Assembly: GCA_040005235.1 (NCBI GenBank)
Contig: JBDTZG010000014.1
Coordinates: 32,001 to 96,000 of the forward strand
Direction: 5' to 3'
Length of the DNA stretch: 64,000 nucleotides
Source: Acidobacteriota bacterium
GTDB taxonomy: Bacteria > Acidobacteriota > Thermoanaerobaculia > Multivoradales > UBA5704
Positions 31,301-61,900 of this stretch are shown here, piece by piece; position 1 is the first letter of the stretch; every line of letters begins with the position of its first letter. The notes beneath the pieces are model-generated. The model saw nothing but the letters and a program-made list of their open reading frames with translations. It was not told the DNA's origin and ran no database searches. The position numbers and the translations under genes were made by a program.

Positions 31301-34300
31301 TGCAGAAGACTCCGTACAGTTTTGATGCGTCGGTCTGGGAGCTTTTCGTGCCCCTGTTGGCCGGAGCCGAGCTGGTCATGGCGCGGCCGGGCGGCCATCA
31401 AGAGCCGGCCTACCTCGTCGAGACCATGGCTCGAGACCGCATCACGGTTCTTCAGCTCGTGCCCTCAATGTTGCCGCTGCTCGTGGAGGAGAAGGGGCTC
31501 GATGATTGTCGCTCGCTGCGGCGACTGTTCTGTGGCGGCGAGGCGCTTCCCGTCGAATCTTGCGCCGAATTCGAAGCGAGGCTGGGGGCGCGCGTCATCA
31601 ATCTCTATGGGCCGACCGAGACGGCGATCGATGCGAGCTACTGGCCCTATCGACCGGGGTCCGGAGAGGTCATTGCTCCGATCGGTCGACCGATCTCCAA
31701 CCTGCACTTGCGAATCCTCGGGCAGGTGGCGGAGCCGGTCCCATTGGGCTCGCCAGGGGATCTTCTGGTGGGGGGCATCGGTCTCGCGCGCGGCTATCTG
31801 GACCGGCCCGACCTGACGGCCGAGCGGTTCTTGCCCGATCCCTTCGCGGAGGTGCCTGGAGGGCGCCTCTACAAGACCGGCGACTTGGCGAAGGCGGGCG
31901 TCGATGGAGGGTTGCGCTTCCTGGGCCGTTCCGACCACCAGGTAAAGATTCGCGGCTTCCGCATCGAGCTGTTTGAGATCGAAGAGGCGCTACGCCAGGA
32001 ACCGGGTGTGCGCGAGGCGGCGGTCGTGGCACGGGATGGCGGTGGCGGCAAGCGGCTGGTCGCCTACTTCGTGGCGGCGGCAGGAGAGTCTGTCGACGAA
32101 GAAGAGCTGCGTGGCGGATTGCGAAGGAAATTGCCCGATTGGATGGTGCCGGCAGCTTTTGTTGCTCTGGCGGCGCTGCCCCTCAACGCGAGCGGCAAGC
32201 TCGACCGCTCCGCGCTCCCGGAGCCGAATCTGCCGCGCATGGCGGGCGCGGTGCCACCGCGGACGGCGGCGGAGCGCAAGCTGGTGGAGATCTGGGCACA
32301 GGTGCTCGGCCTCGAGACTCTCGGAGTACATGACAACTTTTTCAGCCTCGGCGGCGACTCGATCCTGAGCATCCTTATCGCTTCGCGGGCGACGCAGGCG
32401 GGTTTCAACTTCTCACCGCAAATGCTTTTCAAGCATCAGACGGTGGCCGAGTTGGCTGCCGTGACTCAGAGCGGTTCCGGCGTACAGGCCGAGCAGGGGT
32501 TGGTCCTCGGTGAGGCACCTTTGACGCCCATCCAGCGCTTTATCCTGGATGCGGATTTGGTCGACCTCCACCACTACAACCAGTCGCTGCTGTTTGCGGT
32601 CCGCGAGCGGCTGGATATCAGAGCCCTCCAAGCGGCGGTGGCGGCACTCCTTCGACATCACGATGCTCTGCGCCTCGGTTTCACGAAAGAAACCTTTGGC
32701 TGGAGCCAGCGCCATCGAGACCTGAACCAGGCTCTTGCCGTCATCGATCTTGGCGGACTTTCGACCGAGGCTCGAAGTCAAGCGATGCTCGCCGCGTCGA
32801 CCGCGCTCCAGGCCGGGTTCGATCTGAGCACCGGATCGTTGTTCCGAGTGGTTCATTTCACGCTGAGCGAACCGCCGGACCGTTTGCTGATCGCCGCTCA
32901 CCACCTGGTGGTGGACGGCGTCTCATGGCGCATTCTCTTGCAGGATCTGGAGGAGTCCTATCGCTCGTTCGCTCGGGATGTTGAGCCCCAGTTGCCGCCC
33001 AAGACCTCGTCCTTCAAGGAGTGGGCGGTACACCTCGCCGAGCACGCTCAGTCTCCTGAGGCGATGTCCGAGATCGGCTACTGGTTGGATCGGAAGCGGA
33101 TCGGGAAACCCCTGCCGGTAGACCTCCCGAGCGGGCGGAATCGTTCCGGATTGGCACGCATCGTGTCGGTCTCTCTCGATCGCGAGACGACTCGCGAGCT
33201 ACTCCAGCAGGTGCCTTCCCACTACCGCATCCAAAGTCCCGAGCTGCTGCTGGCGGCCGTGGCGAGCACACTGGCGGAGTGGACGAGCTTTCCGTTGCTG
33301 CGCATCGATCTCGAGGGGCACGGCCGTGAAAATATCTCCGAGAATCTGGACACCTCACGAACGGTGGGTTGGTTTACCTCGGTCTTCCCCGTAGTCCTGG
33401 AGATGGGCGCAGAAGACGATATCGAGGAGACCCTCAAGGCGGTGAAAGAGCAGATGCGCCGCATTCCCCGCCACGGCATCGGTTACGGTCTGCTGCGCTA
33501 CTTGAGCAACGCGCCGGAGGCTCTGGATTTGCGCTTGCAACCTCAGGCCGAAGTGAGCTTCAACTACCTTGGTCAAGTCGATCAGACTTTGGCGGAGTCT
33601 TCGCCCTTTGCGCTTGCCGCCGAATCGGCGGGACCGGCTCGCAGCCCTCGTCAACCACGGCGCTACCTTCTCGAGGTCGATGGCCTGGTCATCGGTGGTT
33701 GTCTCCAAGTGAATTGGACGTACAGTGAGGAACTGCACCGGCGCGAGACGATCGAGGCGCTTGCCCGACGCTTCCGGGATCGGCTGCTGGCTTTCATCCG
33801 CCACGCCTTGGTAGGCGAGGGAAGCGGATGCGTTCCTTCCGACTTTCCGCTGGCACGCCTCGACCAAGCCGCAATCGATCGTTTGGCGGGCCGCGACCTC
33901 GAAGATCTACTACCGCTCTCGCCGTTACAGCTTGGTTTCCTTTTTCACGCTCTGCATGCTCCGGAATCCGGAGCCTACGTCCAACAGTTGGTCGCCACTT
34001 TGGAGGGGCGGCTCGATGTCGGTGTCTTCGAACGTGCCTGGCAGGAAATCGTGCGTCGTCATTCGATCCTGCGTACGGCTTTCGTCTGGGAAGGCCTGCG
34101 CGAACCCCTGCAGGTTGTGCGGCGCGATACCGACTTGCGCCTCGAACGCTTCGACTGGACGCATTTCGACCCAAGCGAGGTGGAGGAGCAGTCCATTGCG
34201 CTGATCGAGGCCGACCGTCGGCGAGGATTCAACCTTGCCTTGGCGCCGCTGATGCGCTTGGCACTGATCGAGCTGCCAGGGCGAACCTATCGGCTGGTCT

Positions 34301-35310
34301 GGAGCCATCATCACCTCCTCTTGGACGGTTGGTCGCTACCGATCCTGCTGGCGGAGGTCTTTCAGTTCTACATGGCCCTGCGCGAAGGTCGGTTGCCTGA
34401 GCTCCCGCCTGCACGACCCTATCGGGCCTACATCGAATGGCTGCAAGGGCGGGATCTGGCGTCGGCGGAGGCGTTTTGGCGCTCCACATTCGCCGGCTGC
34501 GAGGTGCCGACTCCCTTGCCCGGGCTCGGTCGGCCGGAGGGGGAGGGTGAGATTCTGGAGCGGGTCGCCCAGCTCTCAGAAGAAAAGAGCCAGGCTGTTC
34601 GCACCTTGGCGCGTCGGAGCCGGCTTACTTTGGGCACCCTCGTTCTGAGTGCCTGGGCTCTTCTGCTCCGCCGGCTCAGCGGGCGCGACGACGTGGTATT
34701 CGGTCTCACCCTATCGGTCCGTCCGGCAGAGATTGCCGGAGTGGAGTCCATGGTGGGAGTACTGCTCAATACACTTCCGGTTCGAATCGCTTGTTCTGCC
34801 GAGGAGAAAGCGGCGAGCTGGCTGCGTGGCATCCAGGCGCTGCAGGTGGAGCTGCGCCAGCATGAGCACAGCCCCTTGGTGGACGTCCAGCAATGGGTGG
34901 GAGTTCCCCGGGGAGTACCGTTCTTCGAGAGCGTCGTTACGGTTCAGAACTATCCCGTCGACCCGTCGCTGCGGGAGAACGCGACGGATCTGGCAGTAAA
35001 GGATCTCCGCTTCCTGGAAAAGGCGACCTTTCCATTGAGCCTTGCTTTGATGCATGGCGCGCTCCTGACCCTCCAGATTCGCTACGACAGTCAGCGGTTC
35101 AATATCGAGCAGGTCGATCGTTGGCACGGCTATCTGCAACGGCTGTTGGTCGCATTCGCCGGCCTGGAGGACGAAACGCTGGGAGACCTGGACGAGCTGC
35201 TCGATGAGTTGGATCGGCAGGAGCAAGCGGCTCGGGAAAAAACCTATCGTGAGAGTGAAATGAAGAAGTTTAAGAATGTTCGGCGTCGCTCGACGTCGGT
35301 GGGCGGGTGA
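16309..35310 (+). CDS. ORF2: hybrid PKS-NRPS KS-AT-(vestigial KR)-T-Cy-A(Cys,MT)-T-C-A(Cys-like,MT)-T-C-A(Gln)-T-E-C
   Basis: 6333 aa ORF. KS VQTACSTS/HGTGT/NIGHL; AT GHSIG and HAFHS; Cy DYLIAD; two VLEIGCGTG MT inserts; E domain HHLVVDGVSW/EGHGRE/RTVGWFT; terminal C HHHLLLDGWS. Confidence 0.97.
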   Translation: MAETAVEKGIAIIGLDGRFPGARNAEELWQNLCEGVESLSRFSQEELRASSPDGTRLEDPRLVPVRGVLSEVELFDAGFFGISPREAAATDPQQRVFIECAWTALEDAGYDPGNCGGLVGVYAGSALSSYAWNNLGSDPELLASLGALQLGILNGKDHLPTRVSYLLNLTGPSVAVQTACSTSLVAVHMACLALLNYECDMALAGGVSIAVPQKAGYLFEEGGILSPDGHCRAFDAAAHGTVMGDGVGIVVLKRLDEAMADGDRIRGVILGSAINNDGGGKVGYTAPGLEGQAEVIAAAHAVAGIDAGTISYVETHGTGTPLGDPVEISALTRAFRMSTDRIGSCSIGSLKTNIGHLNTAAGVAGLIKAVLALEHKAIPPSLHFERPNPRIHFDDSPFFVNTRLTEWSADGAPLRAGVSSFGIGGTNAHVVLEEAPVPEVSDDARRWQLLVISAKTESALEAAAQNLAEHLGRHPDLKLADAAFTLQVGRNRMEHRQILVCRDAAEAIRELTAGEDSRAVRLHEAARERPVVFLFPGQGSQYVGMGRELFELEPLFREQVDLCASHLLPHLGFDIRTLFESSTEESRAAEERLQETAVAQPALFVVEYCLARLFAEWGIEPEAMIGHSIGEYVAACLSGVMSLPDALRLVAARGRLMGELPPGGMTAVHLSEAQVRHLLPADLEIAAVNGPTLVVVAGTLTAVAAFEEKLAEDGVEHRRLKTSHAFHSAMMEPILEPFARVVASIALHEPQRTFISNLTGRPATASEVTDPNYWVRHLRDEVRFSDGVDEIFRDPGRVFLEIGPGRALTTIVRQNPGAQAGMTIPTMRPQSREGSDLAWALEALGRAWLAGVAIDWRGFHHRHRRLRVAMPGYPFERQLHWIEARPLRPSGPLSAIPARSADPAGWFHARTWRRSAGQGSAATEPGALLLWAAPGGLGGEIHRELTSRGVAVVLAELSGSLEPSSLTASLAEEVAPRRIALLVERCTPGPEAAGALALLLSSLASRPEGRDDSPELILVTECAEEVVGSEVTNAVPNDTLATLMAEAARMPGLRWRCVDVDVEGESPRSDKLVDELLAPGPAGVGSVVALRNGYRWLPAYEVVHLEHRAGAIRPGGGYLVVGQIGVASQSVLAAFAEAGAQAQLIPADPAVILASPAFASNLHGIVVTGGWETPADTLAALDVALGGRALDFRLVLAPFAAGQEIEIGETVAERRLAAAVRVRAQAGGVRWRIASWRITSRSGDDQGLTPGEAAEAFLRLITWQGEAHLVVAPVDPSVAVPVAEPLSFAAELKPTGKGGYVAPRNAVERDLAAIWEHFLGIAAVGVFDSFLELGGHSLLATRVTARMREVFGVELPLSSLFESPHLAALAVEIGARRESLGEPSSAAQSPAFHAIAAPADRYDPFPLTEVQQAYWIGRSAGFELGNVAAHSYLEAETRNLDLSRLEAALDRLVNRHEMLRAVVTRDGQQRILAEVPTYRIEVDDLRGMAPEAAEAVLKETRARLAQEVVPTDRWPLFAVRASLLDSGATRLHIRLDYLIADAWSARTLARDVGAFYADPTIFLPNLEVSFRDYVLWLESLRETEEHRRALAYWQGRLENLPPAPDLPLAVSPTTLLKPRFERRRAALPAFHWGELKRRFAQADLAPSAALAAVFAEILTGWSKSPRFTINLTLFNRRPVHAQVGELVGDFTSLTLLAVESEPGGGFLSRARALQRQLWRDLDHQSVSAVQVLRDLSRERGELARGSMPVVFTSTLSMTTGTSAAETEASVADPVQVVYSLNQGPQVWIDHQVSERQGELVFNWDVVEGLFPPGLIDAMFEAYRALLETLAQADEAWGVVPLPLVSTAQLEQRAAVNATEAPVTDDLLHTLFRAQAARRPEATAVVAGDRRLTYGELAARAGWLGRRLRDLGARPNTLIAVAMEKGWEQVAAVLGVLEAGAAYLPVDPSLPSDRLGYLLAHGEVRIALTQSWLEHRLDWPPGIVRICVDREPAKEGLEPLEISQAPGDLAYVLYTSGSTGLPKGVMIDHRGAVNTILDVNRRFALGPNDAVLAVSSLSFDLSVFDIFGLLAAGGKVIVPEPGTSRDAERWVELLHREGVTLWNTVPALFEMLVEHVSGRPDLLPPPLRFALLSGDWIPLSLPDRARQALPGIEVVSLGGATEASIWSILYPVAEVAGDWKSIPYGRPMLNQSFSVLDGQLEARPVWVPGQLYIGGIGLALGYWRDEERTRASFIRHPRTGERLYRTGDLGRYLPDATIEFLGREDFQVKIHGYRIELGEIEATLSQHPAVRECVVAAPGSPQGARRLVAYVVPGSDPVAVKSAKTESAQVAQWQALFDATYGASTGREATFDIAGWKSSYGGDIPPEEMQRWVSSTVERILALRPRRVLEIGCGTGLLLFRIAPFCEHYRGTDLSAEALASIHRQIAAAGIKLPQIQLAQSAADDFTGVASGEFDLVIINSVIQYFPDVGYLLRVVEGAAGVVSPGGHIFVGDVRDLTTLPAFYASIEQALSLVDLGQEELRRRIEQRTAKEEELVVSPDFFRALADRLPAVQGAVMEPKRGRDRNELVNYRYDVTLLIDPPAAPRQVRWQDWQDVGGTLAALCDRWRASEGEPIGVRGIPSSRLTGDLARWADPARGPDGSSAGAVEAVDPEDLFHLGQELRCGTTLTVCGADRPGALDLVLWPLTALDSSTPFWLPAEPHFGEPRWKFWANDPSRPQLAHTLVPKLTAFLREKLPDYMVPGVFVILDGLPLTANGKVDRSALPAPGIDPEAAPGLHVAPRTPTEQAVAEIWSQVLRAERVGVEDNFFDLGGHSLLAIQVLSRLRQQLKVEVPVQTLFESATVAGLSREIDVLLQRSIPEDGARLQPVSRDQRLPLSFSQKRLWFLDRLVPGNAFYNIPAGVRMKGKADLRSLAAAINEIVRRHETLRTTFAEADGEPFQVIAPGIHVAVPHVDLRNLSDAAGEAEIVRLMNEEAKRPFDLAAGPMLRAFTLWRAENDFVLLLTLHHIVSDGWSMGVFYRELQALYSAFSAGRPSPLAPLPIQYADFAYWQNQALQGELREAHLSFWREQLGGLPLLELPTDRPRPRFESFRGSMVSALLDRTLVSSLKAMSQRCEATLFMTILAGFKVFLARYSRQWEIVAGSAAAARNRPELEGLIGFFLNMLVLRTDLSGKPSFEAAVRRVRQVTLDAYSHQDLPFEILVDELQPERDPSRNPLCQVLLMYQNYPVEERGLEGDSLRLMKVDSGTAKFDLVLFVDDVEQGLQVKLEFNTDLFDRTTARRALGQFEILLRSAMATPERSITDLPMIDDVERHQVLTEWNDTEHRYATAERIEELFERAAARQPNAVAVVFEDVVLTYRQLDELANQLAWRLTALGAGPGSYIAVYLERSAAMIPALLGILKAGGAYVPLEVTYPEARIEWILDRLDIRFAVTQASLSAAIGNLGAGSLKTVCIDDALVLATHPRNRPVLPLIENGMAYVIFTSGSTGTPKGVMVRHRAVVNLIDWIGREHRIGSRDRVLFVTSLCFDLSVYDVFGLLAAGGSIRVVSAADVRDPQRLLQILMTEPITFWDSAPATLQQLVPYFPVTPHEIDLRLVFLSGDWIPVGLPDDVRASFPGTQVISLGGATEATVWSNSFPIGEVEAHWVSIPYGRPMQNARYHALDSDFEPAPIGVPGDLYIAGDCLSSGYEDAALSAEKYLPDPFSGQPGERIYKTGDLVRYRPDGNLEFLGRADQQVKVRGFRIELGEIESLLARHPVVADAVVVVREDEPGDQRLVAYAVPRQGEAVYATSEEDWQLRVAEWQTIYDNIYGDSSAVLDPTFNISGWRSSYTGRPLPAEEMLEWVDDTVSRILALRPRRVLEIGCGTGLLLFRVAPHCRSYWATDFSRTALQAIRRTLGSPGLELPQVRLFERLADDFEGLQAGSFDLVLINSVIQYFPSLDYLSKVVSGAASLLSPGGHLFVGDVRSLPLLSTFHTSVQLSQAPPDLSTETLRQNVREGLTQEEELVVAPAFFTEIEQRVPGLGSTRILLKRGAIDNELNRYRYDVICAADHGEAQAPEPCHWLAWKEEAWTLPGIAQFLKETTPSVIGFFGVPNARLAGDAELERLLSDPAGPETVGQLRIAIAARPEVGVDPSELWSSGEVLGFSVEVSWSSAGKEYFDVVFRDSRLAILPVCPPDRDQTTEEPQVLANDPLQARVQQRLASALRAWLQQHLPPYMMPSDFVLLQSVPLTPNGKLDRNSLPIPTRRSGGAIGVPRNPLEQKLAEIWAEVLGVEQVGVFDNFFELGGHSLLATQVMARVAQAVGEEVPLRSLFENPTVAGLAASFGRWQSAAGVATLPRIEPISRVRPLALSYSQLRLWLLDRLAPGNVAYSIPTALRMVGSLAPAILAASLSEIVRRHETLRTTFFLDGDEPVQVIASARPLPLPIIDLSALPAEHLDTCAGGLKAWHAARPFDLEVGPLLRVCLLRFSEREHWALANLHHIVGDGWSVGLLIRELAALYEAAIAGRPSPLPPLPVQYADYAHWQRQRVRGARLSTLLDYWRQRLEGAPAVLDLPMDRPRPEVQTYDGNLMSVLVPTGVVAELRAVIRSESATLFMAFLALFGTLLRRTTRSENFVIGTAIAGRAQVEIESLIGFFVNTLALPLDVSGDPEFSVLLRQARETALGAIANQELPFEKLVDELQPERSLSHSPIFQVALVIQNTAWSSLDLPGLTLSQVSSGAPTAKYDLTLLAEERGDKLAVVFEYNSGLFDRTTIARLLSHLMILLKGAAADPLQRLSELSLMSAAETHQLFCEWNDSQVARPEAASCIHQLFAAQTQRTPEAVAVRVGDAALSYRELDLRTNRLARHLRARGVGVESRIGVFIDRSFEMPVALLAILKAGGAYLPLDPTIPGPRLAQMLSDGGVELGLTAARFMATLPPETPRPIDWIAIDSDGPEFSDDPLVGGAVPENLAYVIYTSGSTGLPKGVMIPHAAIANRLLWMQERFPLSPSDRVLQKTPYSFDASVWELFVPLLAGAELVMARPGGHQEPAYLVETMARDRITVLQLVPSMLPLLVEEKGLDDCRSLRRLFCGGEALPVESCAEFEARLGARVINLYGPTETAIDASYWPYRPGSGEVIAPIGRPISNLHLRILGQVAEPVPLGSPGDLLVGGIGLARGYLDRPDLTAERFLPDPFAEVPGGRLYKTGDLAKAGVDGGLRFLGRSDHQVKIRGFRIELFEIEEALRQEPGVREAAVVARDGGGGKRLVAYFVAAAGESVDEEELRGGLRRKLPDWMVPAAFVALAALPLNASGKLDRSALPEPNLPRMAGAVPPRTAAERKLVEIWAQVLGLETLGVHDNFFSLGGDSILSILIASRATQAGFNFSPQMLFKHQTVAELAAVTQSGSGVQAEQGLVLGEAPLTPIQRFILDADLVDLHHYNQSLLFAVRERLDIRALQAAVAALLRHHDALRLGFTKETFGWSQRHRDLNQALAVIDLGGLSTEARSQAMLAASTALQAGFDLSTGSLFRVVHFTLSEPPDRLLIAAHHLVVDGVSWRILLQDLEESYRSFARDVEPQLPPKTSSFKEWAVHLAEHAQSPEAMSEIGYWLDRKRIGKPLPVDLPSGRNRSGLARIVSVSLDRETTRELLQQVPSHYRIQSPELLLAAVASTLAEWTSFPLLRIDLEGHGRENISENLDTSRTVGWFTSVFPVVLEMGAEDDIEETLKAVKEQMRRIPRHGIGYGLLRYLSNAPEALDLRLQPQAEVSFNYLGQVDQTLAESSPFALAAESAGPARSPRQPRRYLLEVDGLVIGGCLQVNWTYSEELHRRETIEALARRFRDRLLAFIRHALVGEGSGCVPSDFPLARLDQAAIDRLAGRDLEDLLPLSPLQLGFLFHALHAPESGAYVQQLVATLEGRLDVGVFERAWQEIVRRHSILRTAFVWEGLREPLQVVRRDTDLRLERFDWTHFDPSEVEEQSIALIEADRRRGFNLALAPLMRLALIELPGRTYRLVWSHHHLLLDGWSLPILLAEVFQFYMALREGRLPELPPARPYRAYIEWLQGRDLASAEAFWRSTFAGCEVPTPLPGLGRPEGEGEILERVAQLSEEKSQAVRTLARRSRLTLGTLVLSAWALLLRRLSGRDDVVFGLTLSVRPAEIAGVESMVGVLLNTLPVRIACSAEEKAASWLRGIQALQVELRQHEHSPLVDVQQWVGVPRGVPFFESVVTVQNYPVDPSLRENATDLAVKDLRFLEKATFPLSLALMHGALLTLQIRYDSQRFNIEQVDRWHGYLQRLLVAFAGLEDETLGDLDELLDELDRQEQAAREKTYRESEMKKFKNVRRRSTSVGG
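16335..20430 (+). other. PKS module A: hybrid-type KS, malonyl-specific AT, decayed KR region, PCP-like carrier
   Basis: Catalytic Cys at 16846 plus both His residues. NGKD...VQTACSTS is the signature of KS domains downstream of NRPS modules. HAFH indicates malonyl-CoA. Broken Rossmann motif GGGYLVVGQIG at 19651. Carrier LGGHSLL at ~20305. Confidence 0.85.
20515..24860 (+). other. Heterocyclization module: Cy-A(Cys, interrupted by MT)-T
   Basis: FPLTEVQQAYWIGR, DxxxxD (DYLIAD at 20914), PVVFTS, PQVWIDHQ. Code DLFNLSLIWK (Cys-type). MT insert at ~23270-24450 between motifs A8 and A9. Confidence 0.88.
24930..29290 (+). other. Module: C-A(Cys-like, interrupted by N-MT)-T
   Basis: Normal C (HHIVSDGWS). 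A with SGDWIP and SLGGATEATVWS (Cys clade), code DLYDFSLVWK. MT insert at ~27670-28890 (VLEIGCGTG, INSVIQYFP, NELNRYRYD). Confidence 0.82.
29360..33870 (+). other. Module: C-A(Gln)-T-E, predicted D-Gln
   Basis: Code DAWQFGLIDK (Gln-type). T motif GGDS at 32350, typical before an E domain. Complete set of E motifs. Confidence 0.83.
33905..35200 (+). other. C-terminal DCL-type condensation domain (first half of a split module)
   Basis: PLSPLQLGFLFH, LRTAFVWEGL, WSHHHLLLDGWS. Follows the E domain and has no A domain after it in this ORF. Confidence 0.85.
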
Positions 35311-35313
35311 AGC

Positions 35314-38300
35314 ATGGCTACTTCGAGTCTTACTGGAGAAGAACGCATGGGCCCAGCGGCCGTGAATGGATATCGACTTTCACCACAGCAGGAAAGGGTT
35401 TGGTCCCTAAGTAAAGGAGAAAGCGAGGATCATTTCCGCGCCACCTGCCGGGTGCGCATCGCTGGGAACCTCGATCCTGAAGCGATCGCCGCTGCAGCCC
35501 GCCGTTCTGTGGAGCGGCACGAGATTCTGCGGACGGTTTTTCGGAAACCTTTCGGAGCTTCCCATCCGGTGCAGGTGATCCTCGACGAACCTACCCTGGC
35601 TTTCCGATCGGTCGATATGAGCGGGCGGGAGGCAGGTGAGCAGAGGATCTGGCTCCAGCAGCTCGAGGAGGAGGCGAACGCGCCTTTCGACCTGGAGCAT
35701 GGGCCTCTCTTGCGCTGCATCCTCGCCCGGCTGGCTCCTGCCGATAGCGTGCTCTACGTAACTCTGCACTCTCTTTGCGGCGACGGGCCGACCGTCCTTA
35801 ATCTCGTAGACCAAATGGGCCGTACGCATTCCTCGGCGGCGGATGACGAGGAGCCGCTTCAGTATGCCGACTTGGCGGAGTTCTTCAACGAATTGCTAGA
35901 GTCGGAGGAGATGGCGCCGGGCCGGAAGTATTGGCTGGAAAGAGAACGCTCCGGAGCTCAGGACCGCGATTTACCTTTTGATCGTACGAACAGCCCGCTC
36001 GACGCCCCTGAGGTGCGGAGCGCCGCCGTCGCGATGGGCGGTGCGCTGACGGTGCACTCTGGCGATGATGTCAGGATCGCCGATGCTTCGCTTTCCACCC
36101 TGCTGCTGAGCGCCTGGGCGACGGTGCTCTGGCGGCTGACCGGTCGGTCCGATCTCGCTATTTCAGTTGCCAGCGAGGGTCGTGCCTACGAAGGCCTGGA
36201 CGTGGCGCTTGGACTGTTCGCCCGTTCGCTGCCGCTCTCCTGTCGTTTGGCGCCGGAACAGTCGTTCGCCGATCTGATGGTATCGCTCGAAGGCGAGATC
36301 ACCAAGGCGACTCAATGGCAGGGTAGTTTCACCTGGAAACTTTTAGAGGAGAGCCGGGCGCTCGATGGTATCGCTCCGACATCGTTCTTTGGCTTCTCGT
36401 TTCTCGAAGCGCGATCGACCAAGCGTTATGGCGACCTAAGCTTCGTCATCGAACGACTGGACTCGATGTTCGACTCCCCCCGATTGGAGCTGATCGGCAC
36501 GGTGACCTCGGAGCGTCTCGAGCTCCGAGTTCGAGCATCTTCAGAAGTTTGTCCACCTGCCGAGGCTCAGCGGCTATTGGGTCAGCTCACCACGCTGCTT
36601 GAGAATGCCATTGCTAATCCGCAGCGGCGCCTGATCGACCTCCCTTCCCTCTCCCCGGTCGAACGTCATCAACTGTTGTTTGAGTTCAATGACACGGATG
36701 TCTTGCTCACTGCCGAGCAGCGACTGGATAAGCTTGTCCTTGACCAATGCCGCAGGACTCCGAATCGCATCGCCGTCGTCGAAGGCGGTCGCTTCTTGAC
36801 TTTCGCCGCTCTCGACACCCAAGCCGGACGGATCGCCGGCGAGCTGCTCCGGCGCGGGATCGAGACGGATGAGGTCGTGGGTGTCTTCCTAGAGCGATCG
36901 CTGGAGATGGTGGTTTCAATCCTCGGAGTGCTCAAGGCGGGGGCCGCGTACCTGCCGCTCGCTCCGGACTATCCACAGGACCGGCTGGCTTTCATGATCG
37001 CCGATGCGCGGCCCCGATTGATCGTGACCCAACGTCGCCTCCGGCCAAACTTGGAGCCCGCCGACGTTCCGATCTTGTCGCTGGACGAGGAGTGGCGAGC
37101 CGAACCCTTCCGCGAGCAATCACCGGAACATAGCTTGGGAACGGCCGGTACGCTGGCCTACGTGATCTACACCTCGGGCTCGACGGGGCGTCCTAAGGGA
37201 GTCGCAGTCTCGCACTCGGCGATTGGCAATCGGTTGCTCTGGATGCAGCGCCGCTTCCCGATCGGCGAGGATGACGCTGTCGTGTTCAAAACCGCGTTTA
37301 CATTCGACGCCTCGATTTGGGAGTTGTTCGTTCCTTTGCTGGCGGGGGCCCGCGTGATCGTCGCTCGGCCGGGTGGGCAACAGGACAGCCGCTACCTGGT
37401 ACGCCTCGTCCTCGAGCATCGGGCGACAGTGCTCCAACTCGTCCCCTCGATGTTGCGAATCGTGGTCGAGGAACCCGAGCTACCGGAATGCACGTCGCTG
37501 CTTCGCCTGTTCTGCGGCGGCGAGGCTTTCCCCGGCGAGCTTCAGCGCCGTTTTGCGGCTTGTCATACCGCGTCGCTGCACAATCTCTATGGACCTACCG
37601 AGGCCGCGATCGATGCCGCGCACTGGGCCTGCCAACCCGGGGATGCCCCGACATATCTCCCGTTGGGCCGACCGCTGTCGGGAGTCCGGATCTATGTTCT
37701 GGATCCTCGGGTCGCTGAGCCCGCTTTGCGCGGCGTGCCCGGCGAGCTGTGCATCGGCGGTCGAGGCTTGGCCCGCGGCTACCTCGGTAGACCGGATCTT
37801 ACGGCGGAACGTTTTGTGCCTGATGGCCAGAGCGGTTCTTGGGGCGAACGCCTCTATCGCACCGGTGACCGGGTTCGCTTTCGTGCAAGCGGCGTCTTGG
37901 AGTTTCTCGGACGAATCGATCTACAGATCAAGATTCGCGGTTACCGAGTCGAGCTGGGCGAGATCGAGGTCTCGTTGGAGCGGCATCAGGGTGTCGCACA
38001 GGCGGCGGTGGAGTTGCGCTCCAACGAAAAGGGAGATCGTTTGATCGCCTATGTGGTGCCGCGCGCCGAGGCGCCTGATGCAGCCGAGCTGCGTACCTTT
38101 CTGGCCGAATCCTTACCCGACTACATGATACCGGCGGCGGTGGTTTTGTTGCCCGCTTTGCCGCTTCTTCCCAACGGCAAGTTGGATCGCAATGCGCTTC
38201 AAGAGCTCTCGGAGACCGAGGGTGAAAAGAGCAGAGAAGCACCGCAGAGTCTGACTCAGGAGGTTCTGTGCGGGATCTGGAGCGATGTCCTCGGTGTCGA

Positions 38301-54293: not shown

Positions 54294-54300
54294 CCCGCTC

Positions 54301-57300
54301 ATGCCGGTGATCGAATCTTTCCGTCTCTCTCCTCAACAGGAGCGCCTTTGGCACCTCGGCCCCTCGTCGGTCTTTCGAGCGCAGTGCGCGGTGAATCTCG
54401 TGGGCCCGCTCGATCGCGCGGTCCTCGCGAGGGCCGTACGCGACGTCGTCCGGCGGCATGAAATCCTCCGTACCCGATTCGGCCTTTTCGGCGGCACGCT
54501 GGCGGCGCAGGCGCCCGGGGAAAGCGAGGATAGAGCTTGGGTCGAGCTCGATTTGCGCGCCGCCAACCCGCAAGACGGGACGAATCGCATCGCCGGAGCG
54601 TACGCCACCCAAGCGGAGACGCCGCCGGACCTCGGCGCCGGATCGATGCTCGACGTGCAGCTGGTGATTCTGGCGGAGGATCGACACCAGCTGTTGCTGC
54701 GCCTCCCCTCGCTGTGCGCCGACCGCCGAAGCCTTCGTAACCTGGTCCTGGCGATCGCGCGTTCCTATCAGGCCGCGATGGGCGACGGTGGTACCGGGGA
54801 TCAAGCCGCCGCAATGCAGTACATCGAAATCGCGCAGTGGCAGGCGGAGCTGTTGGAATCGACGGATGGCGAAAACGAAAGGCGGCTCTGGCAGGAGAGA
54901 AGTCAGGCGGTCCAGAGCCTCCGACTTCCCCTCGGAGACCCAAGCTCGCCGGAAGTGGAGTCTCATCCCGAGTTGACGACTTTTGAGCTGGGGGAGGGGC
55001 GGATGGCCGGCCTGCGCGCTCTCGCGGATCGAATCGGCATCCCCATGTCGGCGCTTTTTCTCGCTACGTTCTCAGCGCTCCTGGCTCGCCTGGAGGAGTC
55101 GGGAACGACCGCCCTGGGTCTCGTGGCGGAAGGGCGCACCTTCGACGATCTTGCCGACGCTCTCGGGCCGTTCAGCAAGTCCCTGCCTCTCGTCTTCGGC
55201 ACGGAGCAAGGCACCCTTCCCTTCGACCGGTTCGCCCAGCGGGTGCGGAAGGACATGGACGAGGCGGCCGCCATTCAGGAGTTTCTCGAACCCGCCTTCC
55301 TTCCCCTTCGATTCGAGTGGGTCGAGGAGCCGCCGCAGGCGGTCGCGGCGGGGGTGACTTTCGTGATCGACCGCGAGTCGGTCATCACGGATCGCTTCGT
55401 CCTTCAACTCTCCTGTCACGGCGATTCCAGGGGATACTGCGAGCTGCTTTTCGATCCCTCGCGGATGGACCGGACCGAAGCCGAGCGACTGGCAGAGCGC
55501 TTTCGCTCCCTTCTCGACAGCGCTTTGGCCGAACCGTTGAAAACCCTGCGCGAGCTGAACGCCGTGGGGGAGAGGGAGCGAGCGTTCTTGCTCCGGGGTT
55601 TGAATCCGGAGCGGGTTGTCTATCCGGACGCCGATCGATGCCTCCATGAGCTGTTCGAGGAGCAGGTGCGCCGGCGCCCCGGCGCTCCCGCCCTGGTCTT
55701 TGGCGGCACTTCCCTGACCTATGCCCAGCTCGATGCAAAATCGTCGGATCTTGCCGCCCGCCTGGCGAAACGAGGTGCAGGTCCCGAGGTGTTGGTCGGG
55801 ATTTGCATGGAACGTTCGTTGGAGCTGGTAATCGGACTTCTCGGCATACTCAAAGCGGGCGCGGCCTACGTCCCGCTCGAGCCCTCCTATCCGAAAGAGC
55901 GGCTGGAGGCGATGCTGGAGGACCTTGCCGCGACCGGCCGCCTTCCTTTGATTGTCACCCGGGAGTCGCACCTGGCGGCGCTCCCGGAGCGGCCCATAGC
56001 GGACTCCGGTCTACTCCTCCTTTCGGCCGAAGAGCCCGTGGCTCAAGAACGGCATCCATCCGTGCGGATGAATCCCGGGCATCTGGCCTATTCGATCTTC
56101 ACCTCGGGCTCCACTGGCCGTCCCAAAGGGGCGATGAACTCGCACCGCGGCGTGGTCAACCGCCTGCTATGGATGCAGCAAGTCTACGGTCTTTCCCCGC
56201 AGGACCGCGTCTTACAAAAGACGCCGTTTAGTTTCGACGTTTCGGTTTGGGAGCTCTTTTGGCCTTTGATCTGCGGTGCCACCTTGGTGGTTGCAGAGCC
56301 GGATCGACACAAGGACAGCTCCTATCTGATCCGCATCTTGCGCGAGGAGAGGATCACCACGGTCCATTTCGTCCCTTCGCTGCTGCGCATTTTTCTCGAA
56401 GAGCCGACGGTGGCCTCGTGCGGGTCGCTTCATCGGGTCATCTGTAGCGGCGAGGCGCTGCCACCCGATTTGGTGAATCGCTTCTTCGATTGTTTCCGTG
56501 GCGAGCAGGCACCCGAGCTCCACAATCTTTACGGGCCTACGGAGGCGGCGGTCGATGTGACCTGGTGGCGATGCGCTTCCGGAGAAGAAGTGACGCCGAT
56601 CGGCACGCCGGTGGCCAACACCTGCATCTACCTGCTCGACCCGCCGGCAATGGCTTTGCGCCCGGTGCCCTTCGGCGCGCCGGGCGAGATCTGCATCGGC
56701 GGAGTCCAGGTCGGGCGGGGTTACCTGGGACGTCCCGACCTTACAGCCGAGCGTTTTCTGCCCGATCCGTTCTCTCGCGAGCCGGGCGACCGTCTGTATC
56801 GTACCGGCGACGTGGCGCGATACCTGCGCGACGGAGCCATCGAGTACCTTGGCCGCCTCGACGATCAGGTGAAGATTCGGGGGGTCCGGATCGAGCTCGG
56901 CGAGATCGAGTCCGTCCTGCGCCGGCACGAGGGCGTGCTCGACGCGGCGGTGGTGGCGCGAGATGTCGCTCCGGGCGACCGGCGGCTCATCGCCTACGCG
57001 GTGACCCGCGAAACGACCGCTCCGACCGTCGGCGAGTTGCGCTCCTATCTCGAGCGGCTGCTTCCCCAGGCCATGGTCCCTTCCCAGATCGTTCGATTGG
57101 CTGCGTTGCCGCTCACGCCCAGCGGCAAGGTGAATCGTCGAGCCTTGCCGCTTCCCGAACCGGAACGACCGGATCTGGAAGTCGCTTTCGTCGCTCCGCG
57201 GACCGCCGCCGAGAAATTGCTGGCGGGAATCTGGGCGGACCTCTTGCGCGTGAGCGACATCGGTGTCTTCGACGACTTCTTCCAGCTTGGAGGCGACTCC

Positions 57301-58926
57301 ATCCTGGCGGTTCAGGCCGCGTCCAGGGCGAACCGCGCGGGACTTCGCCAATTGCCGATGCAGGTGTTCCGCCATCCAACGATCGCCGCGCTGGCGGCGC
57401 AGTCCGAGGCCCCAGAGACCCCTGAAACCGTAGCGGTCCCGGTCGCCCAGGACGCTCGCGTTCTAGAGGCCGCGGCAGGTCAGTTGGGTGCGAAGGCGGA
57501 GATCGTCGGCGCCTATCCGCTTTCGCCCATTCAGCAGGGGATTCTGTTTCACAGCGTTGAACGCCAGGATCCCAACCGGTACATCCTGCAGGTCAGCTCA
57601 CTCCTTGCGGGGGAGCTGAACGTCGCCGCCTTGCGCTCTTCCTGGCAGCTCCTGGTGGCCCGCCACTCGATCTTCCGCACCGCTTTTCTCTGGGAAGGTC
57701 TGGAGGAGCCGGTTCAGGTGGTTCTCGCGCGCGTCGAAACTCTTTTCGCCAATGTGGATCTCGGCGCTCTCGAGCCGGCGGTGCGAGACCACGCGATCGA
57801 CGAGTGGCTGGAGGCCGACCGCGCCGACGGGTTCGATTTCCGCGTCGCCCCTTTGATTCGTTTGGCGCTCTTTCATCTGGGCGAGAATAGCTATCAATTC
57901 GTTTGGACCTTCCATCACCTGGTCATGGACGGTTGGTCGGAACGAGTGGTTCTCGACGAGCTCAACCGTCTCTACTCGGACTTCTGCCGGGGTCCGGGGG
58001 TCGAGCTCGATCCGGCGCCGCAATTCGACGCTTACATCGAATGGCTACGTCGACGGGACCTCGCCTCGGCGGAAGCATTCTGGCGGGAGGAGTTGCAGGG
58101 TTTCAGTGGCTCGACTCCTCTCGAAGTGCCGGGCGATGGGGTGATCGAAACCGGCGAGGGGACGGGCGTCGAGGTCCGGCAACTTCTCTGGAGCGCGGAA
58201 GAGACGGGTGCTCTTCGGTCGTTCGCCCAAGACTCCCGCCTTACCCTCAACACCCTGGTTCAGGGTGCCTGGGCTCTGTTGCTCGGAGTCGCGAGCAGCC
58301 GGCGGGACGTGGTCTTCGGGGCGACGGTTTCGGGACGCCCCGCCGACCTTTCGGGAGTCGAGTCGATCGTCGGACCTTTTCTCAACACTCTGCCGGTGCG
58401 CTTGCGTTGGCGGCCGGAGGAAAACCTCCTGCCCTGGCTGACCGAGGTCCAAAATCACTTCGCGGAGTTGCGGAGCTATGAGTTCAGCCCGCTGGTCGCC
58501 ATTCAAGGCTGGAGCCAGGTGCCGCGCGGTTTGCCGGTTTTCGAGAGTCTCGTGGGATTCCAGAATCGGCCTTTGCTGCCCGAGGGGGAGCCGAAGCAGG
58601 CCGCGGGCGGCTTTGCGGTGCGCAGTCGCGGGTATCGCGGCGGGCGCAACAACTTCCCGCTTGGACTTGAGGTCGATCCCGGACCGCGGCTCAATTTGAT
58701 GCTTGCCTATGACCGAGCACGGTTTCGGGCGGTGGGCATCGAGCTCCGGCTCAAGTTGTGCGCGACTCTGCTGGCGTCCTTCATGGCGCAGCCCGACGCG
58801 ACGCTTTCCTCCCTGGAAACCAGCCTGGAAGGCAGCCTGCGGCGGTGGCACGAAGAGGACGACCGGCTGCGGGAGCAGCGGAATGTCCAGAATCTAAGGT
58901 TTGCGAGGCGGAGAGTCTCGTCGTAA
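54301..58926 (+). CDS. ORF5: NRPS I-A(Ser)-T-C(DCL-like)
   Basis: 1541 aa ORF. SFRLSPQQERLW start; degenerate site LPSLCAD (~54703); code DVWHISLVDK; T GGDS (57289); terminal C YPLSPIQQGILFH...FHHLVMDGWS. Confidence 0.95.
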   Translation: MPVIESFRLSPQQERLWHLGPSSVFRAQCAVNLVGPLDRAVLARAVRDVVRRHEILRTRFGLFGGTLAAQAPGESEDRAWVELDLRAANPQDGTNRIAGAYATQAETPPDLGAGSMLDVQLVILAEDRHQLLLRLPSLCADRRSLRNLVLAIARSYQAAMGDGGTGDQAAAMQYIEIAQWQAELLESTDGENERRLWQERSQAVQSLRLPLGDPSSPEVESHPELTTFELGEGRMAGLRALADRIGIPMSALFLATFSALLARLEESGTTALGLVAEGRTFDDLADALGPFSKSLPLVFGTEQGTLPFDRFAQRVRKDMDEAAAIQEFLEPAFLPLRFEWVEEPPQAVAAGVTFVIDRESVITDRFVLQLSCHGDSRGYCELLFDPSRMDRTEAERLAERFRSLLDSALAEPLKTLRELNAVGERERAFLLRGLNPERVVYPDADRCLHELFEEQVRRRPGAPALVFGGTSLTYAQLDAKSSDLAARLAKRGAGPEVLVGICMERSLELVIGLLGILKAGAAYVPLEPSYPKERLEAMLEDLAATGRLPLIVTRESHLAALPERPIADSGLLLLSAEEPVAQERHPSVRMNPGHLAYSIFTSGSTGRPKGAMNSHRGVVNRLLWMQQVYGLSPQDRVLQKTPFSFDVSVWELFWPLICGATLVVAEPDRHKDSSYLIRILREERITTVHFVPSLLRIFLEEPTVASCGSLHRVICSGEALPPDLVNRFFDCFRGEQAPELHNLYGPTEAAVDVTWWRCASGEEVTPIGTPVANTCIYLLDPPAMALRPVPFGAPGEICIGGVQVGRGYLGRPDLTAERFLPDPFSREPGDRLYRTGDVARYLRDGAIEYLGRLDDQVKIRGVRIELGEIESVLRRHEGVLDAAVVARDVAPGDRRLIAYAVTRETTAPTVGELRSYLERLLPQAMVPSQIVRLAALPLTPSGKVNRRALPLPEPERPDLEVAFVAPRTAAEKLLAGIWADLLRVSDIGVFDDFFQLGGDSILAVQAASRANRAGLRQLPMQVFRHPTIAALAAQSEAPETPETVAVPVAQDARVLEAAAGQLGAKAEIVGAYPLSPIQQGILFHSVERQDPNRYILQVSSLLAGELNVAALRSSWQLLVARHSIFRTAFLWEGLEEPVQVVLARVETLFANVDLGALEPAVRDHAIDEWLEADRADGFDFRVAPLIRLALFHLGENSYQFVWTFHHLVMDGWSERVVLDELNRLYSDFCRGPGVELDPAPQFDAYIEWLRRRDLASAEAFWREELQGFSGSTPLEVPGDGVIETGEGTGVEVRQLLWSAEETGALRSFAQDSRLTLNTLVQGAWALLLGVASSRRDVVFGATVSGRPADLSGVESIVGPFLNTLPVRLRWRPEENLLPWLTEVQNHFAELRSYEFSPLVAIQGWSQVPRGLPVFESLVGFQNRPLLPEGEPKQAAGGFAVRSRGYRGGRNNFPLGLEVDPGPRLNLMLAYDRARFRAVGIELRLKLCATLLASFMAQPDATLSSLETSLEGSLRRWHEEDDRLREQRNVQNLRFARRRVSS

Positions 58927-58930
58927 GGGG
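58924..58930 (+). promoter_or_regulatory. Probable Shine-Dalgarno site for ORF6
   Basis: TAAGGGG, overlapping the ORF5 stop, 7 nt upstream of TTG 58938. Confidence 0.55.
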
Positions 58931-58937
58931 TGCAGCT

Positions 58938-61900
58938 TTGAATCAGTCAGGTATCGAGAATCGACCAGGCGAGCCCGGCTCGGAAGAGATCCTGGGGTTC
59001 AGCCTATCGCCGCAACAGCGCCGTGCGCTCTGGTTGAAAGAGCGCACGGCCGGCTCGGCTTTTTGGATTCAATGCACCTTTCGGATCGAAGGCCCGATCG
59101 AGCTGAAAGCGCTGCGCCATGCCGTGAGTAGGGTGGTGGCTCGCTATGAAGTCCTACGGACGGTTTTCGTGACCACGCCGGCCCCTGCCAAACAGGTGAT
59201 TCGCGAGTATCTGGCGCCGCATTTGCGACATCTCGATTTGCGCTCTCTGGACGAGGAGGCCCGCGCCGCCGCCGTCGATCTCGCGGTTTCCGAGGCGGTC
59301 CGGGAGCCCTTCGACCTGGAGCGCGGGCCCTTGATGCGGGTCTCTTTTTTGACTCTGGAGCCCGAGCTGTCGATCTTGGAAATATCCCTGGCGGCCGTCT
59401 GCGGTGATCGCTCCACCCTGCTCCGAATCGTTGAGGAAATTGCCCGCGGGGTCGACCCGCCCGATGGGGAACCCGAAGGCGAGGTGCTTCAGTATGCCGA
59501 TATGGCCGATTGGCTGAATCAACTCGAAGAATCGAGCGAGCCCTGGACCCGAGAAGCGGCCTGGCCGAGCCGCGACGCAGCGGAGCTGGACGCTCTGCTT
59601 CTCCCGTTCGAAAGCCCAACGGCGAGCTTCAGGCCCGGCGTAATTCCGGTGCCGTTGGCGCCCGGAGCGCTCGCCGGGCTGGAGGCCCTGGCCGCTCGTC
59701 GCGGAGCCTCTCTTGCGGGAGTCCTTCAAGCGGCCTGGCATGCGGTGCTCGGCCGCCTCACGGGCTCCCGCGAGATGGTCGTCGGATCGTCGACGGACGG
59801 GCGAAGGTACGATGAGCTCCGGGAAGCCGTCGGCCCCCTCTCCAAAGCCTTGCCGATCCGCTCCCGACCCGCTCCGGCAATGCCATTTTTCGACCTGCTC
59901 GCTGCGGTCGAAGCCGCCATCGCCGAGGCGATACGAATCGAGGAGTCGTTCAGTTGGGAGCCGCTCCTCGGAGGGCGCGAAGGGCGGGGGTATTTCCCCT
60001 TCGCTTTCGAGCTCTGGGAAGAGCCGGTACCGTTGCGAATCGGCGGTACGGTGTGGAGCCTCGGACAGGTCTCCGGCGGCGGAGAACGCTTTACCGCGGC
60101 CCTCGTTTGCCGACATTCAGCGGGTGCTCTCAAAGCCGAGGTCGGCTACAACGAGGCGGTCCTGAGCCGCGAAGAGGCGGAGCGGCTGGCCGAGCGTTTC
60201 GCCACCTTCCTCTCTTCCCTCATGGCTACGCCCGAGGCACCGACCGGCTCCTTGTCGATGGTGGGCTCCAAAGAACGGCTGCAGCTGCTTGGCGACTGGA
60301 ACGAAACCCGCAGCGAAGATGTCGAGAAATGGCCGGTCCACCGGTGGTTCGAGCGGCAGGCGCGCACTACGGCCGAGAACACGGCCGTGGTGGCAGGAGG
60401 GGTGCGCCTGACCTACTCGGAGCTGGACCGACGCAGCAATCAACTTGCGCGTTTTCTGCGCCGGTCCGGCGTTTCTCCCGACGTCCTCGTCGGCCTCGCC
60501 GTGGAGCGATCCGTCGCGATGGTCGTCGGCCTCCTGGGGGTCTTGAAGGCCGGAGGGGCGTATCTCCCCCTGGACCTCGGCCACCCTCGGGAGCGACTCG
60601 AAATGATCCTCACGGAGGCGCGTCCGGCGGTGGTTCTCACCACAATGGAGTCCCTCGAGCGCCTGCCTGTAGCCGCGGAGCGGCGGGTCTGCCTCGACCG
60701 CGATTGGGAGCGGATCGCCGTCGAGAGCGCCGAACCGGTGGCTGCCGCGGTGGCCTTGGAGAATCTGGCCTACGTGATCTACACCTCGGGGTCTACCGGC
60801 CGACCCAAGGGGGTGATGATCTCCCACGGCGGACTGCGCAATTACCTGCTTTGGGCCACCCGGGCCTATGGAGCCGGAGAAGGGCAGGGGTCTCCGGTTC
60901 ACTCGCCCCTCGGTTTCGATCTTACCGTGACCAGCCTTTTGAGCCCGTTGGTTGCCGGCGGCGCGGTCGTCTTGGTGGAGGAGGCGTCCGGCGTCGACGG
61001 CCTTCTTGAGGTTCTGCGCCAGGGAATGGACTTCGGCCTGGTGAAGCTGACGCCGGCCCACCTTTCGCTGGTGGAACAGGGCCTAGGGGTGCCATTCGAG
61101 GGAAAAGTGCGCACGTTGGTCGTCGGGGGGGAAGCCCTTTTCGCCGAGAGTTTCGCCGCCTTGCGTGCCGAGGCGCCGGCCACGCGCATCATCAATGAGT
61201 ACGGTCCGACGGAGACCGTCGTCGGTTGCTGCACCTACGAGGTCCCCCTGGAGGGAGCGCCGCCCGCCGGAGCGGTTCCCATCGGTCGTCCGATCGCCAA
61301 TACCCGCCTCTACCTGGTCGACGGGTGGTGGAATCCGGTGCCTCGCGGCGTCCAAGGCGAGATTTGGATCGGCGGCGCGGGGGTCGGTCGCGGCTATCTC
61401 GCCCGGCCGGATCTGACGGCCGAGCGCTTCGTCCCCGATCCCTTCTCGGACGAACCGGGAGAGCGGGTCTACGTCAGTGGCGATCTCGGCCGCCTTGGGC
61501 TGGACGGAAACCTCGTCTATCTCGGACGAACCGATCACCAAGTCAAGATTCACGGCTATCGGATCGAGCTCCAGGAGATCGAGGCCGTCCTGCGTCGCCA
61601 TCCGCACGTCCGTGAGGCGGCGGTGGTCGTGGCGGGCTCGGGGTTGGATAGCAGGCTCCTCGCCTTCGTGGTTCCTTCCGGCGAGGCGGTGGATCAAACA
61701 GCGCTGGCCGCTTTTTTAACCCTTCATCTTCCTTCGTACATGATCCCCGCCCAGATCGGCCAGATCGCGTCCCTTCCCTTGACGGAAAACGGCAAGGTGG
61801 ATCGCGGTCTCTTGTTGGCCCGAGAGGCGGAGACGGCTGCCCGGAGGGATTTCATCGCGCCTCGGACGCCGGTCGAAGAGCTGCTCTCCGGGATCTGGGG

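Follow-up and report, generated by a model that had tools for sequence, protein, structure and literature searches.

Interface-type domains at three split junctions without a hydroxylase gene in an acidobacterial NRPS-PKS assembly line

We analysed a window of 64,000 nucleotides (nt) from the genome of an Acidobacteriota bacterium (G000), corresponding to positions 32001-96000 of contig C132. The contig has a length of 106 kb and is nearly entirely one assembly line of nonribosomal peptide synthetase (NRPS) and polyketide synthase (PKS) modules. We found that three proteins of this line, encoded by the open reading frames ORF3, ORF5 and ORF6, start with domains that are, judged by their phylogeny, very probably of the interface (I) type, and that no gene for a TauD-type hydroxylase, the usual partner of such domains, lies at their junctions. 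We give about even chances to the overall reading that the glutamine (Gln) module of ORF3 would be served in trans by a TauD enzyme encoded on another contig (C56), that hydroxylation of the asparagine (Asn) of ORF6 is uncertain and that the I domain of the serine (Ser) module of ORF5 would be a relic.

Split junctions and their interface-type domains

The genes concerned lie on the forward strand, with ORF2 at 16309-35310, ORF3 at 35314-48138, ORF4 at 48135-54293, ORF5 at 54301-58926 and ORF6 from a TTG at 58938 past the end of the window. This TTG was picked by aligning the heads of the sibling domains; the alternative start is a GTG at 58845. The gaps ORF2/ORF3, ORF4/ORF5 and ORF5/ORF6 measure 3, 7 and 11 nt, so that there is no room for a gene between the two halves, and a search with PF02668 (TauD) gave no match anywhere on C132. 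The statement of a first-pass annotation of this DNA, that no hydroxylase gene is found at any of the junctions, is thereby confirmed.

The upstream halves, ORF2, ORF4 and ORF5, do close with an intact condensation (C) domain, as had been claimed. These domains carry the motifs HHLLLDG (33871..35220, +), HHLVTDG (52833..54197, +) and HHLVMDG (57475..58845, +) and are full matches to the Pfam Condensation profile with 299, 262 and 260 bits. The first and the third belong to the DCL-type clade; an E domain precedes that of ORF2, and that of ORF4 comes after KS-AT-ACP-aminotransferase. The C-like domains at the N-termini of ORF3 (35314..36672, +), ORF5 (54301..55587, +) and ORF6 (58938..60284, +) match PF00668 (Condensation) more weakly, with 163, 135 and 152 bits. 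Their heads read GYRLSPQQ, SFRLSPQQ and GFSLSPQQ, and at the aligned position of HHxxxDG we found LHSLCGDG, LPSLCADR and LAAVCGDR, so that the catalytic motif is lost. The pattern described before, [GS][YF]xLSPQQ combined with a degenerate HSLCGDG, PSLCADR or AAVCGDR, was thus correct in every detail. All three domains are N-terminal in proteins with the order I-A-T (A, adenylation; T, thiolation), and the upstream neighbour always closes with the intact C domain.

The interface family and its hydroxylases are already known, and antiSMASH 8, which is said to hold an interface-domain profile, detects them. Such a profile is absent from Pfam and NCBIfam. In passages of two papers the family is described as C-like, without HHxxxDG, heading an NRPS after a C domain and having an Fe(II)/2-oxoglutarate hydroxylase as partner (PMC13638107, PMC12230676). 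We defined the family operationally, as the clade that contains the domains following TauD genes, and not by published reference sequences.

In a tree of 77 I-type and 17 other C-family domains of G000, the I-type rows formed one clade with a value of 100 in the Shimodaira-Hasegawa-like approximate likelihood ratio test (SH-aLRT), and the LCL, DCL, starter and E domains of G000 fell outside it. All three window domains are inside this clade, where they sit on long branches and are not mutual nearest kin. Their best tblastn matches among all fetched loci are I domains adjacent to TauD genes, with about 30-33% identity, a result that does not depend on the I profiles. Moreover, G000 contains six I-type domains, three on C132 and three on contig C91 in a second NRPS cluster, and therefore a chance resemblance can be dismissed. 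The match to the I-domain arrangement, for which the first-pass annotation had asked for a phylogeny of C domains, is borne out by this clade. By their sequence, the window I domains are catalytically dead members of the condensation superfamily, which head modules split between C and A. The I-clade profile (alignment A3, window domains included) best matches ordinary C-domain structures, namely Txo1/2 and PvdL. It also matches PDB 8z0q, a 'special condensation domain', at 209 bits, and no chain of this entry matches the TauD profile.

The surroundings of I domains were taken from a TauD-centred scan with one genome per species, which gave 80 loci from Acidobacteriota, cyanobacteria and myxobacteria. 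A domain at these loci was called I-type when it scored above the canonical-C profile with the I profile. In 56 of the 80 loci a C domain at a gene end is followed by one or two TauD genes and then by an I-type domain. Two different tandem TauD genes stand before one I domain at L014, L017, L021, L023, L026, L027, L031, L044 and L061, and the two copies of tandem pairs at acidobacterial junctions fall in different TauD clades. Domains with an envelope below 300 or, in other cases, below 380-400 residues were left out of alignments and trees, and I matches below 250 bits were not counted as I. Of the 92 I references collected (86 from loci and 6 of G000), 73 entered alignment A3, and alignment A4 holds 81 of 110 TauD references (107 and 3); both were thinned by eye by removing near-identical cyanobacterial rows.

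The C proteins upstream of such junctions end in about 40 residues in which, by eye, a charged helix leads into a basic motif that fits [KR][FL]xx[IVA][KR][KR][KR], present with or without a TauD gene downstream. In ORF2 (35221..35307, +) the helix is followed by KKFKNVRRRSTSVGG, a proposed docking tail that is kept in an orthologous cluster of the genome G685. ORF4 ends in LSKLRRTERKPLVSAQGS (54198..54290, +) and ORF5 in NLRFARRRVSS (58846..58923, +), and other junctions show the ends QQKLTNVKRRTSR, LMSVKRRSIRR and KFSSIKRRAVAS. We infer that this charged and basic tail docks the two halves of the split module. As the basic tails of ORF2, ORF4 and ORF5 resemble the N-termini of TauD proteins, they could be taken for remnants of a deleted TauD gene; this was rejected because upstream C proteins that still precede a TauD gene have the same tail.

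Substrates and conservation of junctions without a hydroxylase gene

The I profile and the TauD profile were run against 400 genomes of the class to which G000 belongs; 4-5 candidates were scored in each genome, and the counts are therefore lower bounds. Outside G000, at least 48 I-type matches were obtained in 29 genomes. Of these, 25 directly follow a TauD gene, 21 do not and 2 are at contig edges. The family to which the window belongs contributes at least 22 I-type domains, and by our count 14 of the 22 lack an adjacent TauD gene; in the genomes G306, G307 and G309 this holds for 12 of 18. Hence, a junction that lacks a hydroxylase gene is no rarity in the class, and almost half of the sampled I domains have no such gene next to them. 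On the 892-kb contig G176:C1, a free-standing C protein is followed by an I-A module with a Ser-like code, and no TauD gene was found on that contig. G279 has two successive C/I junctions with one TauD gene at the start of the cluster. An earlier phylum-wide survey with 5 candidates scored per genome, in which at least 4 of 300 other genomes matched, was replaced by the class survey and by searches of single genomes. In the literature searched we found no relevant report of I domains without hydroxylases or of acidobacterial beta-hydroxy-Gln peptides, although such reports may exist in print.

The specificity codes of the A domains were taken by motif anchors and corrected by hand, with no structural alignment. 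The codes are DAWQFGLIDK for the A-T part of module 1 of ORF3 (36673..38478, +), DVWHISLVDK for ORF5 (55588..57474, +) and DLTKVGEVGK for module 1 of ORF6 (60285..62105, +), which, following the Stachelhaus tables, we take to be Gln, Ser and Asn codes. The Ser-type code of ORF5 is identical to that of the ordinary module 2 in ORF3. For comparison, codes were collected outside G000 from loci that were partly reached via TauD and from relatives that are not independent. The 36 I modules without an adjacent TauD gene comprise 13 with Gln, 8 with Asp, 4 with Glu, 3 with Asn, 1 with His and 2 with Ser codes, 4 others (one of these, L110, being a mis-parsed Gln code) and 1 without a code. The 84 TauD-adjacent I modules gave Gln 8, Asp 13, Glu 12, Asn 7, His 29, Ser 0, other 5 and no code 10, and the 86 ordinary C-A modules of the same loci gave Gln 2, Asn 2, Ser 10, other 53 and no code 19, with none for Asp, Glu or His.

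Together, Gln, Asp, Glu, Asn and His thus account for 29 of 35 coded I modules without a hydroxylase gene and for 69 of 74 coded TauD-adjacent ones, compared with 4 of 67 coded ordinary modules. Ser codes occur in 0 of the 84 TauD-adjacent but in 2 of the 36 hydroxylase-less I modules. The codes of ORF3 and ORF6 lie within the substrate set of the TauD-adjacent modules, that of ORF5 outside it. If docking were their only function, no such preference for particular residues would be expected. The narrow substrate set is therefore our strongest argument for trans service of most I modules without a hydroxylase gene.

The three I domains were compared with 69 TauD-adjacent ones, in which 48 alignment columns are conserved to at least 85% and 8 of these are interface-specific. 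The reference domains keep on average 45 of the conserved and 7.6 of the specific positions, with minima of 38 and 5. The Gln domain of ORF3 has 43 conserved positions and all 8 specific ones. The Ser domain of ORF5 has 42 and only 4, the latter being under the minimum of the reference set, while the Asn domain of ORF6 keeps 6 specific positions and falls under the minimum with 36 conserved ones.

The second cluster, on C91, has two C/TauD/I junctions, both at Glu-coded modules, and at one of them the TauD gene and its I gene share an ATGA overlap. In the third C91 I module, the code is of the Gln type (DAWQYGLIDK) and a TauD gene is not adjacent. FkbM-type methyltransferases have an O-methylating role. 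Such a domain (PF05050) is found inside the A domain of two scanned C91 I modules, the hydroxylase-less Gln one and one Glu one (L007:11868-14630 and L008:1667-4369, both -), and the remaining C91 I module has the same extra length. The C91 I modules may yield beta-methoxy residues. O-methylation by FkbM would need a hydroxyl group, and therefore the Gln residue of the hydroxylase-less module must be hydroxylated in trans if FkbM acts on a beta-hydroxyl.

Candidate hydroxylases, the orthologous cluster and competing readings

G000 has three full TauD genes, two at the Glu junctions of C91 and a third at C56:165525-166619. The search of the flanks and the count of such genes, proposed as a check in the first-pass annotation, thus gave none on the contig and a single free TauD in the genome. 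The C56 protein (PF02668, 177 bits) is 54% and 46% identical to the two C91 TauDs and keeps the iron ligands H130/E132/H324 as well as R326/R333 for 2-oxoglutarate, which are invariant in 81 sequences including C56. As to other oxygenases, the genome gave no match for P450, one for PF05118 (AspH) on C35 and three for PhyH on C122, C123 and C59, with no AspH or PhyH match on C132.

The C56 enzyme falls into a clade of 18 non-junction acidobacterial TauDs and one junction TauD (L039), with 99% support for the 19 rows. Apart from L039, the junction TauDs closest to this clade are three enzymes of the Gln type (23-row clade, SH-aLRT 86). Over the 74 labelled rows of the TauD trees the substrate label switches only 9 times, and the tree therefore tracks substrate. 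TauDs of the non-junction clade are often located 8-37 kb from I domains without an adjacent TauD gene, as in G685, G687, G688, G677, G681 and G645. The single TauD gene of G279, of whichever clade, also has such a cluster next to it.

Downstream of ORF6, just outside the window, there are genes for an SDR and a carbamoyltransferase (L011:11411-14258, equal to C132:101411-104258). A tblastn search with these two matched L033, an 'orphan' TauD locus, and led to an orthologous cluster at G685:C2:3880015-3952904. It is colinear with U5, the protein upstream of ORF1, and with ORF1-ORF6, at 57-67% amino-acid identity. The ORF2/ORF3 junction is kept in G685, with the tail RFKRARRRSAPVGS, the head IEGFRLSPQQ, the I motif LPALCAD and the code DAWQAALIDK, and no TauD gene was found at this junction. 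The equivalents of ORF4 and ORF5 form one protein, in which C runs directly into the Ser-type A domain as an ordinary C-A-T module without I domain. The T domain of this module keeps GGDSI, the T motif that is also found in ORF5. The C domain that corresponds to the terminal one of ORF5 has the motif PHLIMDG; a T domain and the next C come directly after it, and the Asn module has neither an I nor an A domain. The last protein of the G685 cluster (L162-L163, G685:C2:3935832-3952904) contains a C-T-C stretch with a T domain without its own A domain, which may be either a skipped module or one loaded in trans. Behind the TE domain follow the SDR (71%), the carbamoyltransferase (71%), a U3-like gene, an ABC exporter and a TauD gene. 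The latter belongs to the non-junction clade and lies on the same strand, 170 nt past the exporter and 7.7 kb past the NRPS stop. When the ortholog is taken together with the residue counts, the Gln I domain looks maintained and the Ser and Asn I domains look relaxed.

We propose that an upstream protein, which ends in a working C domain and a short charged and basic tail, would dock its I-headed partner by this tail. In most relatives a gene for a TauD-family Fe(II)/2-oxoglutarate hydroxylase separates the C gene from the I gene; the window has none at this place. The Gln held on the T domain of ORF3 would be beta-hydroxylated in trans before or together with condensation by the C domain of ORF2. 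We hold this hydroxylation, most likely by the C56 enzyme, to be somewhat more probable than its absence. The Asn module of ORF6 may use the same enzyme; its I domain has drifted, which makes this uncertain, and hydroxylation of Asn appears possible but doubtful. In ORF5 the I domain would be a structural relic that holds only the A domain and the docking site and leaves Ser unhydroxylated; a hydroxylated Ser is hardly to be expected from its code and conservation. Which TauD acts, and hydroxylation as such, we infer from these comparisons.

Tentatively, the non-junction clade as a whole may have left the C/I junction and may act as a shared trans enzyme for I-headed Gln, and possibly Asn, modules in several clusters of one genome, a generalisation that we rate as rather unlikely. 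Its clients in G000 would be ORF3 and the third C91 I module, and the I domain would serve as an address label among dozens of modules. Modules that change their substrate, such as the Ser module here, would keep a decaying label.

Several points weigh against an assignment of the C56 enzyme to the window. The neighbours of its gene are Hsp33, ABC-importer, PRMT-like methyltransferase and TPR genes, and this synteny is conserved in the relatives L034 and L038. In the genome of L034, which is of the same genus (G301 = G433), no ortholog of the window I domains was found, the best match reaching 295 bits compared with >600 bits for the self matches. The C56 TauD is therefore not dedicated to the cluster. 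Likewise, a TauD of this kind occurs in G304, where an I-type domain was not found. The C56 TauD and the cluster-edge TauD of G685 are only 58% identical and belong to different subclades, and because G685 has 7 TauD homologs, the pairing of TauD and cluster is positional only. In G089, which is 99% complete, an I-type domain lies at an operon start and a TauD homolog was not found at E <= 1e-10, hence I domains can exist without any TauD. Furthermore, C132 stops 1.9 kb past the carbamoyltransferase gene, and a gene hidden in the assembly gap is possible. Only 4-5 candidates were scored in each surveyed genome, the residue names given to the codes follow the Stachelhaus tables, and no code was obtained for 30 of the 206 modules. 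Lastly, the I domain of MxgB, a protein of myxoglucamide biosynthesis, is described as dispensable for hydroxylation in vitro in a passage of PMC13638107. That the C56 TauD was inherited together with the C132 cluster was also considered and rejected, as L034 and L038 keep the synteny and the genome of L034 lacks orthologous I domains.

Several of these points would fit an alternative in which all three I domains work without any hydroxylase, as remains of module splitting whose only tasks are to steady the A domain and to dock the preceding C protein, so that the product has plain Gln, Ser and Asn. We consider this unlikely, though less so than the remaining alternatives. It agrees with the lack of TauD on C132, with the conserved non-NRPS neighbourhood of the sole free TauD, also present in a congener without the cluster, and with G089. 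The docking tail is present regardless of a TauD gene downstream, the G685 ortholog retains just one of the three I domains, and the reported dispensability of the MxgB I domain points in the same direction (PMC13638107, in part). On the other hand, plain docking does not explain the concentration of hydroxylase-less I modules on Gln, Asp, Glu, Asn and His, nor that the Gln I domain keeps all specific residues and is conserved in an ortholog with a TauD gene at the cluster edge.

The first-pass annotation had concluded that all three positions, including Ser, are tailored in trans by remotely encoded partners. Trans action is partly supported by the narrow substrates and the free C56 TauD, for Gln and perhaps for Asn, but not for all three. 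In favour of all three are the interface type of each domain, the total of three TauD genes in the genome, the tailoring genes (SDR, carbamoyltransferase) downstream of ORF6 and the speculation of the myxoglucamide authors, in a passage of PMC13638107, that enzymes of other kinds might be recruited by I domains. However, the Glu junctions of the C91 cluster take up two of these TauDs, which leaves one free TauD for three positions. Ser already has a beta-hydroxyl group, and no Ser code was seen in TauD-partnered I modules. The I domain of ORF5 has lost half of its specific residues and is absent from the ortholog, where an ordinary C-A-T module carries Ser and the Asn module has no I domain either; the genome has no P450 and the contig no AspH or PhyH match. 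Tailoring at all three positions is thus improbable. There is only the slightest chance that the I domains are catalytic in their own right without the His motif, for instance via the Cys and Asp of LxxLCxD: C155 and D157 (ORF3 numbering) are invariant in the six G000 copies and D157 in all 73 aligned sequences, but the Cys is not among the positions conserved to at least 85% across the clade, the Asp is equally invariant in ordinary C domains and the predicted line needs no extra catalyst at these points.

Further features of the line and relation to known systems

The line starts with the loader U5 (FAAL..C-A-T-C-A-T), which is followed by the five C-A-T modules of ORF1. ORF2 consists of KS-AT-ACP, a Cy-like domain, two Cys-type A domains with methyltransferase inserts and then C-A-T-E-C. 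ORF3 is I-A-T with three further C-A-T modules, ORF4 is KS-AT-ACP-aminotransferase-C, ORF5 is I-A-T-C and ORF6 is I-A-T-C-A-T-C-A-T-TE. The first C-like domain of ORF2 (20485-21861, +), behind the PKS ACP, has DYLIADAWS at the HHxxxDG site, and we take its DxxxxD pattern to be the heterocyclisation (Cy) signature. As this domain precedes a Cys-type A domain, the installation of a thiazoline appears likely. The methyltransferase domains (PF08242 and relatives) inside both Cys-type A domains are at 23467-23842 and 27883-28222 (+). The class-III aminotransferase domain (PF00202) of ORF4 (51630-52715, +) lies between the ACP and the terminal C domain, and a beta-amino acyl unit may be formed just ahead of the Ser module. 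In ORF5 (57280-58845, +), the T motif GGDSI is of the kind usual ahead of E and the terminal C domain is of the DCL type, yet an E domain is absent from this protein.

The product may carry an O-carbamoyl group, given the SDR and carbamoyltransferase pair that is 71% conserved behind the G685 cluster. A 481-amino-acid protein at L010:579-2021 (C132:18579-20021) has no Pfam or NCBIfam match; it recurs close to NRPS genes on C83 and C79 of the same genome and is also found between the carbamoyltransferase and the TauD gene in G685. The end of C132 (L011:16080-16205) consists of short tandem copies of a unit resembling GGGAAATGGGTACGG, which probably explain the assembly break 1.9 kb past the carbamoyltransferase.

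Interface domains were reportedly described by Reitz and co-workers in 2019 together with IBH-type Asp/His beta-hydroxylases in siderophore NRPSs. Such systems are also the subject of passages in PMC12230676, PMC12971057 and PMC13638107. They share with the window a C-superfamily domain without HHxxxDG that heads I-A-T and an intact C domain that closes the preceding protein, and the clade of the window I domains also includes domains found behind TauD genes at modules with His, Asp, Glu, Gln and Asn codes. In contrast to the siderophore systems, the window has no hydroxylase fused, at its three junctions or anywhere in the 100-kb cluster, and its substrates are Gln, Ser and Asn instead of Asp or His. 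Moreover, it is a FAAL-primed NRPS-PKS lipopeptide line and not an obvious siderophore line, with three such junctions in one line.

In glidomide biosynthesis, a stand-alone dioxygenase, GlmF, is found with an I domain that was reported to be indispensable (Chen et al. 2022, as cited in a passage of PMC13638107). As would be the case in the window, a stand-alone TauD-type enzyme acts there on the T-bound residue of an I-headed module; unlike in glidomide, the only free candidate in G000 lies on another contig in a non-NRPS neighbourhood. The myxoglucamide proteins MxgA (C-Ox) and MxgB (I-A-PCP) resemble the window in the C/I split, in a FAAL-primed NRPS/PKS hybrid and in a polar residue (Glu), whereas Ox is fused to the C-terminus of MxgA and the window has nothing between C and I (both from passages of PMC13638107). 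The role of the I domain is thus disputed, one system being reported to need it and another not (PMC13638107, in part). The myxobacterial loci L081 and L091 were considered as stand-ins for the published MxgA-Ox fusion and rejected, as TauD is a separate gene there.

The X domain of glycopeptide NRPSs, an inactive C-like platform for trans-acting oxygenases, occupies the C-terminus of the last module, and the enzymes it recruits are P450s. The I domains of the window, by contrast, are N-terminal, and the genome has no P450 match. In the literature searched, we did not find data on how frequent hydroxylase-less junctions are or on their unchanged substrate range, nor a description of the non-junction TauD clade or of an orthologous cluster pair that differs in I domains.

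The cluster of G000 and its ortholog in G685 represent a natural experiment, in which the same line has three I domains and a distant hydroxylase in one case and one I domain and a nearby hydroxylase in the other. What the I domain does can therefore be addressed directly with gene swaps and mass spectrometry. A structure prediction that looks for hydroxylases only inside clusters would miss beta-hydroxy-Gln, beta-hydroxy-Asn and beta-hydroxy-Asp, and reading every I domain as a mark of hydroxylation would over-call beta-hydroxy residues.

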